Notes under the pieces: generated by a model
Told to the model about the DNA's origin: nothing
Database searches by the model: none
Seen by the model: the letters and a program-made list of their open reading frames with translations, nothing else
NCBI GenBank assembly: GCA_951406725.2
Contig: OX597817.1
Location: 163,556,001-163,620,000, forward strand
Source of the DNA: Octopus vulgaris
Lineage: Eukaryota
DNA length: 64,000 bases
Reading direction: 5' to 3'
Position numbers and translations under genes: made by a program
Shown: piece by piece, positions 26,394 through 61,816 of the stretch
Layout of the letters: each line of letters starts with the position of its first letter
Numbering within the stretch: the first letter of the stretch is position 1

Positions 26394-26437
26394 AGCTCCG
26401 GACATGTTTCAGTCCTATTGTTCCTCATTAGCATAGC
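26394..26437 (-). ncRNA. Decayed minimal hammerhead ribozyme-like motif
   Basis: Minus strand GCTATG CTAATGA GGAAC AATA GGACT GAAAC AT GTC CGGAGC; G5A in the core and mismatched stems. Confidence 0.4.
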
Positions 26438-26904
26438 ATAGTTAAACTCAGGTCTGCTTTATCAGTTTAGAAACAATATTACATGCAAAGAGTTGCAAAA
26501 ATGTTTGTTAGAAGTAATTTGCATAATTAAGAAAAAATAATTAAATGAGCCACATGAAAGCCACATGAAATAATTCATGTGGGTAAATAACATGCAGTTA
26601 GAAAATTAAGTTAAGATGATATACTAAATGATGCATAGAAAAATATCTTTATTAATTAAAAACCTCTTTATTGGAGAAAGAAAAGAAGGATCTAGCGGTA
26701 ATTCTTAGCCACTATCCAAGAAAAGGAGCGATAATTTGCACCCATCATTTAATATGTCGCCCTTTACCTCATCTAAATCCAAGCTATCGGCATATTTGAG
26801 ATATTTCATTCTGTTCATTTTATTTATAATTGTGAAGAACATTTGATCAAAAGGCCGGTCTCTCTTCTTGATAAAGAAATTCATCACAGTAATTTTGGTT
26901 GATA

Positions 26905-27166
26905 AATAATAAAATAAATGCGCCCTTTTAAAGTCTAGCCAGGCTCAAGGACCCGGTTTCCCGGTTTCTATGGCGTATGTGTTCCCCAGCTGGACGGGAC
27001 GCCAGTCCATCGCAGTGTTACTCATTTTTGCCAGCTGAGTGGACTGAAGCAACGTGAAATGAAGTGTTTTGCTCAAGAATACAACGCGTCGCCCGGTTCA
27101 GGAATCGAAACCACAATCTTACGATCATGAAGCTGACACCCTAACCACTAAGCCACGCGCCCCCAC
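26905..27166 (-). mobile_element. SINE family C
   Basis: TSD aattttggttgata; matches the 11846 copy. Confidence 0.93.
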
Positions 27167-28155
27167 AATTTTGGTTGATATAGTTTCTTAACATTTTTCT
27201 CTTCGGATTCTACTGATTTATTTCGTCATTTCTTCACATGGCTGTAAATCGGTCGAAAAATTATTCCATTCAACGCGTGAACTACGAATATCCCCGCTTT
27301 TAGCAAGTCAAAATGTGTTCCTATTAAATGTCAAAAAATTTCATTTCCTTCCCCCTCTCTCTTTCTCTCTCTCTCTCTCCCTCTGTTTTTATCTGCCTCT
27401 CTCTCTCTCTCTCTCTCTCTTCCTGTCCCTCTGTCTCTGTCTCTTTCTCTCTCTTCAACACATTCTTTTGTTATATTATTCCACAACTTACACTGCAACC
27501 CGTTTGACATGCAGCTGAACAACTCTTACAACAGACAAGTATCTACCCAGTCTTTTGTTTGCTTTAGTCACACCCAGAGTTAGTTACATTTTTAAACCAA
27601 TCTATTCAATCCCCTCTTTCTCGCTCTCTGTTTCCTTCACTCCCCCTCTCTCCCTTTGTACTCTAAGCATATTGCTATTAGTCAGGCTTCCAATTCACCG
27701 ACCCGTTGTTAAAACAACTGCCATATCGAATACACCTGCCATATTAAAATCTTCTATTCTGGGAAAGGTTTAAAGATAAGATTTCATCGTAAATATTTGC
27801 ATTCTAGTTCTATATGTTTAACCACTTACGGCCATAAACTCTGCCATAGACTTCAATAAATTACTGAAACTTGCACTGCATAATTCACCGCACTATTCCC
27901 GGCTTTACTACAGTACTATAGGACTTCACTACTATAACCTCAACCACACGACTATATATTCCATTACACTATAACAGTCTCCTACATTATTACTTCCATT
28001 ACAGTACTTCATTAACTACTGCAATTCTGAAGCCTCCAGTGCATTAAAAACTATAAGGCGGCAATCTGGCAGAATCGTAGCTGGGCATTTCTCAAAGAAA
28101 CGCGCGCTCACATAAATACACACACAGGCATGCACATGCAGGTATATACGATGAA

Positions 28156-28523
28156 GTGGAGACACAATACCCCAGTTGTTAGGGCAGCAGACTCGCGGTC
28201 ATAGGATCGTTGTTTCGATTCCCAGACCGGGCATTGTGAGTGTTTATTGAGCGAAAACACCTAACCTGCTCCGGCAGGGGATGGTGGTGAACCCTACTAT
28301 ATTCTTTCACAATTTCCTCTCAGTTTCTTCCCGTTTCTGTTATGCCTGTATTTCAAAGGGCCGGCCTTGTCATACACTGAGTCACGCTGAATCTCCACGA
28401 GAACTACGTTAAGGGCACACATGTCTGTGGAGTGCTCAGCCACTTGCACGTTAATTTCACGAGCAGGATGTTCCGTTGATCGGACCAACTGGAACCCTCC
28501 TCGTCGTAATCGACGGAGTGCCA
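28156..28523 (+). mobile_element. SINE family E (distinct tRNA-like head, tail shared with family D), abutting an old minus-strand SINE B fragment (28527-28695)
   Basis: B box gtttcgattcc; tail tgtatttcaaagggccggccttgtca...gacggagtg matches 43305-43480; atatacga on both flanks. Confidence 0.85.
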
Positions 28524-28978
28524 AGATATACGACGGGCTTTCACACCGTTTCAATCAACGAAATTCACTCAAAAGACATTTGTCGGCCTGGGTTTACAGC
28601 ATAAGAATTTTTCCCAAGGGGCCGCGCAATTGAATTGAACCAGAAACCACGTAGTTCCAAAGCGATCTTCTTAATCACACGGCCATGCCAGCGGCTATTA
28701 TGCTAACATTTGTTGGGTATAACTGATTTCCACTACAGCGCACATTTTACACTATTCTGTACAAGATCGTATTTGGTCTTTTATACCGAAGCTTTATTGA
28801 GATTGTGGCAAGATCACTCTACCATTATTCTTTCGTATTATAAGGAAGTATGCATCTCCACTTCACATCAGAGCAGCTTCTGGTATTTTTATCTTCAGGA
28901 CTATCCTTTCTATGGATTGCATTGTATAATAGCATAATAGCTTGGCCACAAAATCAAACTTCATAGGCAGTTGGTTTC

Positions 28979-29210
28979 TATATATGTATGAATGTATGTA
29001 TGTATATATGTATGTATGCATGCATGTATGTATGTATGTATGTATGTATGTATGTATGTATGTATGTATGTATGTATGTATGTATGTATGTATGTATGTA
29101 TGAATGTATGTATGTATGTATGTATGTATGTATGTATATATATATATATATATATATATATATATATATATATATATGTACGTACGTATGTATATATGTA
29201 TGTATGTAGG
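28979..29210. repeat. (ATGT)n/(TA)n microsatellite
   Basis: Direct reading. Confidence 0.97.
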
Positions 29211-59169: not shown

Positions 59170-59322
59170 TCGGCTGGTATTCATTTTCAGCCGAATAGAC
59201 TAGAACGGCGTAAAATAGTGTTTTGCGCAAGGAGGAGACAATACTCCATCTGGTCTAAAAGTCGATACTGCAACCATATGGTTGTGGGCCCAATACCTTA
59301 ACTATTAAGCGACTTGGCTTCT
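59170..59322 (-). mobile_element. Ancient C-like SINE head (a similar relic lies at about 53025-53157)
   Basis: Degenerate match to gagtggactggagcaacgtgaaatgaagtgttttgctcaag...ccctaaccactaagcc. Confidence 0.55.
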
Positions 59323-60445
59323 CTTACTCTTTTTTCTCTCTCTCACTCTCTCTTTCTCTCCCTGTCTCTCTCTCTCTCTCTCTCTCGATATATCACACAC
59401 ACATATACACACGCGATTATACGTATCTGCATATCTGTGTTTCTTAATACGTAAGGTAGACAGGATTTCGTAATGACGTAATCCTGTTTATAATACAAAT
59501 AAATTAAATATGGATTCTACGCTATTGTATCATAAAGTTCAATGGCCGAGTTTACGTTTTTGTAGTACAAAATAGACTGCATACACACTCTCTCACACAC
59601 ACGTGCGTATTCGCGCGAACACGCTCTCGCTCTCTCTCACACACACATACACATGTGTGTGTGGGTGGGTGCGTATCAATGCATGTATGTATGAATCTGT
59701 GTATGTATGTATGTATGTATGTATGTATGTATGTATGTATGTATGTATGTATGTATGTATGTATGTATACATACATATATCTATATGCATGTATAGATAC
59801 GTATATGTATATATATATGTGTGTGAGTATGTGCGTGCATACATACATATGTACAGTTGCATATGTAAATATGTGTGTGTGTATATATGTATATATGTAA
59901 GCATATGTACATATATACAAATGTATATCTATACACATATATATTCGTTTATGTATATATATGTATTCATATGTATATATATATATATATATATATATAT
60001 ATATATATACATATACATGTATACGAATATTTATATATGCGTATAGATATGCATATGTATATATGTACATATGCTTACATGCACACACACACACACACAC
60101 AAACATATATATATATATACATACATATATATGTGTGTGTATGTGTGCGTGTGGTGTGTAGACACACATATATGTACATACATGAAGAATGGCTCATCTT
60201 TGTCTCATATTAAGCCTGGTTACACTGATTTACTTTTATCCATGCGTGTGCACGGATATGTTTGACTCATGTCAGCTGCACACTTCTGCACGACTCCATC
60301 GCCATTCGACTTTATAAAATACAATGCGAACAAAGAAATAAGACGAATAGCGAGTCAGCTGTACGTCATTTAGTTATATATCCATATACGCACATTTATA
60401 AATATATAGACACGCACACACATATATGTGGCGTATATATCTATA

Positions 60446-60785
60446 CGTGGCACCTAGGGCAAGTGTCTTCTACTATAGCCTCGGGCCGACCAAAGCCTTG
60501 TGAGTGGATTTGGTAGACGGAAACTGAAAGAAGCCCGTCGTATATATGTATATATATGTACGTGCGTGTATGTTTGTGTGCCTGTGTTTGTCCCCCTAGC
60601 ATTGCTTGACAACCGATGCTGGTATGTTTATGTCTCCGTCACTTAGCGGTTCAGGCAAAAGGGAACCGATAGAATAATTACTGGGCTTACAAAAGAATAA
60701 GTCCCGGGGTCGAGTTGCTCGATTAAAGGCGGTGCTCCAGCATGGCCGCAGTCAAAATGACTGGAACAAGTAAAAAGAGAAAGAG
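60446..60785 (+). mobile_element. 5'-truncated SINE B
   Basis: Begins at cgtggcacctagggcaagtgtc. Confidence 0.9.
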
Positions 60786-61220
60786 ATATGCATACGTGCG
60801 TATCTGTGTGTGTGTGTGTGTGTGTGTGTGTGTGTGTGTGTGTGTGTGTGAGAGAGAGAGAGAGTGTGTGTGTGTGTTTTGTCCGTGTGAGGTAAATTGT
60901 TCAAATAGCAGTGAAGTCAGAACAGAATATGTGGAATCTTGTAACAAATTGTAGATTAAACATGGATTCCGCAACAGCTGTCAATTTTGCCGTCTCGTTG
61001 GCTCATCAGATAACGATGCTAATCTCCCTTCATTCAAAGAATTTTCAGTGAATCTTCAGATAATTCAAACACTTCAATAATAATTCAAATGTTGTGTCCA
61101 TATTCATGCCTCTGCATAACTTTGTGGTATCGTGTTCAGTAGGCCTGTGCGGTACTTTGGCCAAGTGCTCTCTATACGGTAGTCTTAAGCCAATCAATGC
61201 CTTGTTAGTGATATGTATAA

Positions 61221-61597
61221 ATAGGCGCTGGTTTGGCTGTGTGGTAAGAAACTTGCTTCCGAAACACATGGTTCCGAGTTCAGTCCCACTGCGTGGCATC
61301 TTAGGCAAGTGTTTTCTAATATAAAAGTCCTTGTGAGTGGATTCGGTAGACGAAAACTGAAAGAAACTCGTCGTATATATATATATATGTGTGTGAGGGT
61401 ATTTGTGTGTGTGCTTATGTCTGTGGCTGTGTTTGTCTCCCACCACCGTTTGACAACCGGAGTTTGTTTGTCTACGTCCCCATTATCTATAAGTGATTGA
61501 TAGAATATGTACCAGGCTTAAAACAGTTAAGTACTCGACAAGAAAGTTCTTCAAGGCAGCGCCCCAGTATGACGGCAATCTAATGACTAAAACGGAT
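61221..61597 (+). mobile_element. Older SINE B (preceded by another B relic at about 61125-61215)
   Basis: Degenerate B consensus. Confidence 0.8.
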
Positions 61598-61742
61598 TAA
61601 TATATATATATATATATATATATATATATATATATATATATATATATATATATATATATATATATATATATATATATATATATATATATATATATATATA
61701 TATATATATATATATATATATACAATATGTTACATTACTCGG

Positions 61743-61816
61743 TAGTCAAGATAAAACTCTGAGTTTCAGATGCCGAAGTGGAAATCCACAACACCATCTC
61801 TTCGGTTATCTGGCTA
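61743..61816 (-). ncRNA. Type-I hammerhead-like fold (U4C core) in a 190-bp (TA)n-flanked insertion (61722-61911)
   Basis: TAGCC AGATAA CCGAAGA GATG..GTGGA TT TCCAC..CATC T GAAACT CAG AGT T TTATCT TGACTA. Confidence 0.6.

Follow-up and report, generated by a model that had tools for sequence, protein, structure and literature searches.

Penelope-like element stubs with variant hammerhead ribozyme cores in the Octopus vulgaris genome

Four short inserts in a 64-kb stretch of the Octopus vulgaris genome (G000:C4:163,556,001-163,620,000, hereafter the window) are almost certainly, to judge from their sequences, the 5'-truncated 3' ends (stubs) of three autonomous Penelope-like elements (PLEs), which we term families A, B, and C. 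The initial annotation of the window, part of an AT-rich and microsatellite-rich genome of 2.8 Gb, had listed six type-I hammerhead ribozyme motifs, and we found all six where it had placed them (Table 1). It had also assigned four of the motifs to inserts with sharp (TA)n or microsatellite borders, as we observed for inserts of 223, 208, 262, and 189 bp; the two remaining motifs, D and E, have no TA borders. The altered hammerhead cores of the inserts (A6U in family A, U3-A8 in B, and U4C in C) are family-fixed traits that are present in tandem parent elements bearing open reading frames (ORFs). There is nothing unusual in the stubs, the TA targeting, or the U3-A8 core, all of which are already known. 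The new part is the existence of young, prolific PLE families with fixed core changes, A6U and a repeated U4C, which have apparently gone unreported.

Table 1. Hammerhead motifs, element stubs, and the endonuclease relic in the window
Feature	Coordinates	Strand	C3 position	Remarks
E, decayed hammerhead relic	26396..26436	-	26431	Core CUAAUGA; one relative, with canonical CUGAUGA
Family A stub, youngest subfamily	29758..29980	-		95.9% to tandem element L207; flanked by (TA)n
A hammerhead, minimal type I	29856..29893	-	29888	Core CUGUUGA (A6U), extra A after A9; H17 at 29861
Family A stub, C7 subfamily	46238..46445	-		88% to L207; flanked by (TA)n
A hammerhead, minimal	46335..46372	-	46367	Core CUGUCGA (A6U); H17 at 46340
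GIY-YIG endonuclease relic, Hydra-like PLE	47642..48025	-		Resembles the family C endonuclease (32%, E 1e-9)
Family B stub, 3' end with tail	51883..52144	-		99% to L118 end
B hammerhead	51969..52007	-	52003	U3-A8 core UUGAAAA; H17 at 51972
D, decayed copy of old repeat family	56258..56305	+	56264	Canonical core; 41 relatives at 72-84% over short matches
Family C stub, ends at short (tail-less) 3' site	61723..61911	-		99% to L111
C hammerhead	61749..61811	-	61805	U4C core CCGAAGA, long stem II, near-palindromic stem III; H17 at 61755

Parent elements of the inserts

The inserts that carry the motifs with C3 at 29888 and 46367 belong to one family (A) and are 87% identical to each other. Copies of this family have a fixed 3' end and ragged 5' ends, and most are short; for the stub starting at 46238, the best 40 of 1533 candidates were 95-100% identical. 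Extending two copies upstream (L007 and L009) did not reach an ORF, and longer copies (L137/L138) extend into a frame with GIY-YIG endonuclease and reverse transcriptase (RT). A protein search returned 24,043 candidates, with a stop-free match in 111 of the 114 that were scored, and protein relatives at ~55% identity were also found by search. Four fetched parent loci (L206-L209) are built of ~4.47-kb units with open frames of 1024-1214 aa that contain RT and GIY-YIG. Three of these four loci have a hammerhead at both unit ends, and all eight hammerheads at the ORF-bearing loci have the A6U core. The median nucleotide identity of ORF-bearing A copies is 97.7% (16 sequences, some out of register). 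At the four parent loci, the frame continues past the endonuclease into a pyrimidine-rich stretch of variable length.

Family B includes copies that are 98-99% identical to the window insert. Twenty-six of 29 copies run further into the parent, and coding sequence of the parent is contained in 21 of the 29 loci. The parent unit measures 4349 bp and has two ORFs of 437 and 762 aa (Pfam RVT_1, E 3e-8); these overlap (L118:1123-4658), an arrangement that suggests a frameshift. The parent of family C is a tandem element with a period of ~2580 bp (2.58 kb) and a 717-aa open frame. At one further locus (L112, G000:C1:57292340-57308619), three C-type hammerhead matches lie ~8.1 kb apart, with no long ORF in the 9.9 kb fetched. 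The stubs starting at 29758, 46238, 51883, and 61723 are 95.9, 88.4, 99.0, and 99.0% identical, respectively, to their tandem parents.

Full-length tandem parents with PLE ORFs, a linkage that the initial annotation had proposed looking for, were thus found for all three families. In each, an RT with a C-terminal GIY-YIG lies upstream of the pseudo-long terminal repeat (pLTR), as in endonuclease-positive (EN+) PLEs, and a pLTR hammerhead is present in 8 of 8 cases in A, in 5 of 5 in B, and in 6 of 6 in C. The families also show tandem periods (~4470 bp in A, 4349 bp in B, and ~2580 bp in C), inverted 5'-truncated copies, and, in B and C, two 3' end sites. The suggested link to (TA)n also held up across the families, as 18 of 25 fixed ends in A have a TA run after them, as do 25 of 28 in B and 16 of 16 long ends in C.

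On the strength of a CX2-5CxxC linker, GxKF/Y-like and DKG motifs, and two Cys between GIY and YIG, A and B are of the Neptune/Nematis type. They resemble the EN+ PLEs of this type described by Craig et al. (2021, PMC8557442) in their tandem and inverted structure, tail, and microsatellite bias, and differ from them in the continuation of the A frame into its pyrimidine-rich tail and in the two overlapping ORFs of B. The layout of A is close to the Acropora Neptune motif described in PMC4209133, a likeness that is a lead only for Neptune placement. Family C has the features of the Hydra clade: a unit of <3 kb, RWK and DKT motifs, no GxKF/Y, a CxCX5C linker, no CCHH, CxxC plus CxH, and a (TA)n target. 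However, the Hydra-clade PLEs described in PMC8557442 have canonical hammerheads, whereas C has a U4C majority, a ~73-nt tail, and >6,000 matches.

The initial annotation had instead viewed the inserts as non-autonomous, retrozyme-like mini-elements; on such a view they would spread as small circular RNAs. Most A copies are indeed short, a few loci (L002 and L020) hold two head-to-tail A copies separated by microsatellite, the 19 D loci yielded neither a PLE protein match nor a parent ORF, and a preprint derives animal retrozymes from PLE pLTRs (bioRxiv 10.64898/2026.07.22.740005). Non-LTR retrozymes, as described in that preprint and in PMC7229834, are likewise short, non-coding, and PLE-related, with type-I hammerheads. 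However, they are there characterized as tandem repeats of 150-450 bp with canonical hammerheads and circular RNAs, whereas the window inserts are solo truncations that form the last 190-260 bp of autonomous RT and GIY-YIG elements. No tandem repeat of 150-450 bp in the window holds any of the six motifs, and the tandem units that we found are 2.6-4.5 kb long and ORF-bearing. Furthermore, the copies have no defined 5' end, their lengths grade continuously into ORF-bearing copies, and inverted 5' copies and tails are the insertion pattern of PLEs. For families A, B, and C, the retrozyme-like view is largely refuted, and we give it very little credence as an account of the whole.

Core variants across the families

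Among the A matches listed, U6 was present in 97 of 100, and any base could occupy the free position N7 (23 A, 22 C, 12 G, and 43 T). The A6 form with the stem II of family A gave only 343 matches. When A copies were instead found by their 3' flank alone (in 794 kb), five had U6, one had C6, one had its core deleted, and one was unreadable. In the youngest-subfamily copy of the window (29856..29893), stem II is GAGC/GCUC and the palindrome is ACGU. A 141-column flank tree (107/108 copies) sets the canonical sister group apart and leaves many forks unresolved. In one inverted pair (L235:1259-1625), the two arms differ at position 6 (U6 versus A6), and some A6 copies are therefore likely to be late mutations.

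Family B had U3-A8 in 100 of the 100 matches listed, even though the search pattern permitted C3 and G8, and its stem II is closed by a G-C, G-U, or A-U pair. In the window copy, a G>T change breaks the stem III palindrome that its best-matching copies carry. In family C, C4 was present in 21 of 25 core-bearing loci and U4 in the other 4, while 5 of 30 loci were truncated; an older U4 subfamily exists, and all six hammerheads of the tandem loci L111 and L113 have C4. A relative of A that is absent from the window, family H (L280-L299, e.g., G000:C1:1229908-1229941), has U4C in 89 of 100 among the matches listed, with an endonuclease fragment upstream in L296. We also noted a canonical-core family (L301, G000:C1:585829-585864) that makes up 54 of the first 100 of 13,463 canonical matches.

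The minimal hammerheads of PLE pLTRs described by Cervera & De la Pena (2014, PMC4209133) are of type I and have a tiny palindromic stem III, and the initial annotation was right to place the octopus motifs among them: stems I and II, the palindromic stem III, and the NUH site are found in A, in family B, and in C, and the stems or palindrome have decayed in D, in E, and in the B window copy. That paper also reports an extra base after A9 (as in A), the U3-A8 core UUGAAAA (as in B, and in S. mansoni family 4), and mostly solo copies of truncated PLEs, with inverted pairs. B and D conform to the core rule of PLE minimal hammerheads, CUGANGA/UUGANAA, from which A (U6) and C (C4) depart. Fig. S3 of PMC4209133, for which the descriptor demanded canonical boxes, shows neither U6 nor C4 in any of its 56 rows. 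The claim of non-canonical cores stands for three odd cores, which are family-wide (A6U, U3-A8, and U4C), but not for the motif at 56264, whose core is canonical, as is the majority core of the D family (CUGACGA). The CUAAUGA core of E is likely a product of single-copy decay or mutation.

Natural core variants with reduced activity have been described by Perreault et al. (2011, PMC3088659): U3-A8, U4C in a viroid, where it is weak yet sufficient for infectivity, and A6C in a phage, which cleaves at <0.1/min. Those variants are rare single examples, whereas in the octopus A6U and U4C predominate in families with thousands of copies. The fixed core changes are likely to weaken self-cutting.

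Exact contigs spanning U6 occur in four public runs under four other organism codes. In 18 metagenome stretches, U6 lies nearly always in a motif that otherwise equals the published Acropora Neptune hammerhead, with mixed flanks, and these stretches may be sporadic mutants. We found neither an A6U hammerhead nor an octopus hammerhead census in the literature; Lunse et al. 2017 may bear on this novelty, as it may already list U6/C4-like variants. The available text of PMC11300833 contains nothing on A6U.

Abundance, detectability, and other remnants in the window

Exact pattern matches in the genome numbered 14,904 for A, 3,375 for B, 6,154 for C, and 6,379 for H, and the reversed-pattern controls of all four gave 0. 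Canonical minimal motifs gave 13,463 exact matches, with 21 in the reversed control, and all exact matches together come to ~44,000, with small overlaps. It is on the family-level counts of A, B, and C, with their zero reversed controls, that the case for real motifs rests. Within the window, a relaxed type-I descriptor found 3-4 folds, compared with a mean of 0.4-0.65 (maximum 2) in 20 block shuffles, so that in the shuffle control proposed with the initial annotation such folds were commoner in the window than by chance. Apart from a weak hammerhead-like fold at 14216-14290 (-) that is at chance level, this descriptor picked up no motif other than the two A copies and C; B, D, and E were missed because their window copies are mutated. 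A loose canonical-core pattern alone gave 5 matches in the window against 3.8 expected, which is no enrichment.

We also considered whether the window is a local hot spot. A 420-kb sample chosen regardless of motifs, made up of ten 40-kb blocks picked arbitrarily and the 10 kb flanking the window on either side, contained 16 family hits, which corresponds to 2.4 expected per 64 kb. With its 4 hits (P=0.23), the window is of ordinary density, and the hot-spot idea was rejected.

The suspicion that these hammerheads are under-annotated was borne out, as Rfam calls none of them. A search of the whole window gave no hammerhead among the 150 of 323 rows listed, in which microsatellite and microRNA matches dominate. 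In 13 short loci, the only Rfam matches were to B (E 0.8, or E 0.031 for a family copy) and to D (E 2.4), far below the gathering threshold, and Rfam also missed the canonical-core control. In other cephalopod work, 235 Rfam hammerheads are listed for the giant squid (PMC6962438), and PLE families have been annotated in Octopus vulgaris in a paper whose available text does not mention ribozymes (PMC13282606).

The motif E is not predicted to fold as a hammerhead, and its site folds poorly. The Penelope GIY-YIG relic reported at 47.6-48.0 kb is real (Table 1). It was tried as the parent of the nearby A stub and rejected, since blastn found no DNA match between it and A, B, or C. A seventh hammerhead-like remnant, heavily decayed, lies at 56043-56072 (-), 190 bp from D and in the opposite direction, and has no relatives in 1.36 Mb of loci. 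Beside the A stub that starts at 46238, a palindrome and hairpin at 46510-46600 (+) hold the words GAAAC and CUGAAG in permuted order; no relatives of this structure were found.

Elsewhere in the window, seven copies of a ~315-bp unit alternate with (AAT)n at 21574-23821, and Tc1/mariner transposase fragments, identified by Pfam helix-turn-helix (HTH) matches, lie at 8066-8578 and 50212-50583. A stretch at 30531-31070 is presumably another Tc1/mariner transposase fragment, by resemblance, and we take an ORF fragment at 57327-57704 (-), which has no Pfam match, to resemble the restriction-like endonuclease of a non-LTR element. The initial annotation had assumed a location in host introns. Pfam found no host exon among 150 of the 154 non-repetitive window ORFs of at least 55 aa, only mariner/Tc1 HTH domains, which leaves that assumption unsupported, although such a scan cannot exclude a long intron.

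Selection on the variant hammerheads and their possible role

Among the majority sequences of six A6U subfamilies, the 36-nt hammerhead is 3.9% divergent versus 20% and 18% in the flanks, and its differences are confined to N7 and H17, with loop II constant too. In four public runs under four other organism codes, contigs stack up between the two arms of stem I, and both their depth peaks and their loose ends coincide with its limits (788/789 and 825-828), summed contig depth in those runs not being equivalent to copy number. H17 was never G in the 30 loci where the pattern left it free, and G12, a catalytic residue, is retained, as are the 3-8 pair and the NUH rule. The stem covariation check was answered in part: comparison of A with its canonical sister shows one compensatory C-G/G-C exchange in stem I (in 7 of 31 rows; equaled in 2 of 500 shuffles, with relatedness uncontrolled), while stems II and III were fixed by the search patterns. 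The low divergence around A6U suggests that this hammerhead is a weakened but still selected ribozyme.

One alternative is that the hammerhead is dispensable and that the variant cores are chance mutations hitchhiking with a few master elements. The high identity of the ORF-bearing A copies illustrates how thousands of copies can descend from a small number of masters, the flank tree shows A6 and U6 replacing one another, and Naiads spread without canonical hammerheads (PMC8557442). However, U6 persists across subfamilies whose flanks diverge by 18-20% while N7 takes all four bases, and the conserved block stops at stem I in independent runs, and we consider hitchhiking improbable.

We favor, with moderate confidence, the explanation that the inserts are PLE 3' stubs with slow, dimer-dependent variant hammerheads, and we think it somewhat more likely than not that the variant ribozymes still cleave in the parent RNA. 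For a B family copy and for C, the lowest-energy dimer is predicted to be a hammerhead dimer, a structure that the B window copy has lost. We also tried an "off-lock," in which U6 or C4 would pair the core to stem III; it was rejected, as constrained folding made core opening costlier in only 3 of 18 variant-locus/flank settings.

Under the favored explanation, the element's endonuclease would nick (TA)n, and the nicked target would prime on the RNA through TA-like letters. Parent sequence past the 3' boundary is TA-like for 6 nt in A, 9 nt in B, 8 nt at the short site of C, and 2 nt at its long site (L207, L118, and L111), a continuation that hints at primer-template annealing, unlike the non-homologous initiation in vitro of the anole element. 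Reverse transcription would then start internally on the RNA, a short way beyond the hammerhead, and frequently halt within a few hundred bases, leaving stubs. Measured from the cleavage site, the main 3' boundary lies 104 (A), 89 (B), or 105 (C) nt downstream, and the first ATG of the next unit 710, 123, or 211 nt downstream, respectively. In tandem parent RNA, the hammerhead is predicted to cut slowly as a dimer. Because every copy spans the cleavage site, the template would have been uncut or re-ligated there, and such a template would favor a slow, dimer-dependent ribozyme. A6U and U4C may accordingly be read as tolerated or favored attenuations, possibly aided by an element protein as in the anole PLE, for which internal initiation, protein-assisted cleavage, and an unprocessed template are described (PMC11167929). 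The lone stubs in the window are likely inert, since without a tandem partner they lack what dimeric cleavage and circularization require.

The same PLE stubs could also carry A6U and U4C hammerheads that no longer cut, the fold having become a binding or positioning signal for the RT near its initiation site. Core changes are fixed in three young families (A, C, and H), all copies span the cleavage site, loop II is constant in the A majority sequences, and, for the anole element, insertion in vitro proceeds without cleavage and RNA-seq shows no RNA ends at the site (PMC11167929). Against this, G12, the 3-8 pair, and the NUH rule have been kept, and natural A6C and U4C variants remain active (PMC3088659). 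We regard a non-cutting signal as unlikely, although less so than hitchhiking.

Several observations weigh against slow, dimer-dependent cleavage as well. Cleavage by a PLE hammerhead was dispensable for insertion in vitro in the anole study, and the spread of Naiads shows that canonical hammerheads can be done without. The covariation amounts to a single stem I pair inherited by one sister group, the 3.9% divergence comes from pattern-selected copies, and a short flank tree implies at least five changes between A and U at position 6. For A, the dimer predicted to have the lowest energy is joined through stem II and is not a hammerhead dimer. Finally, canonical-core families thrive in the genome too (with 13,463 matches against a control of 21), and since they do so alongside the variants, attenuation is not required.

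A bolder reading, which we advance tentatively and think has somewhat less than an even chance, is that prolific young PLE lineages have repeatedly and independently fixed core changes that would cripple catalysis (A6U at least once and U4C twice) while all remaining catalytic and helical positions stayed under strict selection. The element's protein would then rescue the non-canonical core, or the fold would have become a non-cutting RNA signal for reverse transcription, and in both cases tens of thousands of motifs would escape present descriptors. Rfam, like descriptors that require CUGANGA, overlooks about half or more of the ~44,000 exact matches.

The octopus genome offers matched natural pairs with which to approach the question of why PLEs retain so weak a hammerhead. 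One lineage contains a canonical sister, an A6U family (~14,500 exact matches), and a U4C family (~5,700), all with the same stem II helix. The independent U4C of the Hydra-clade element C adds a further comparison for cleavage rate, protein assistance, and copy success.

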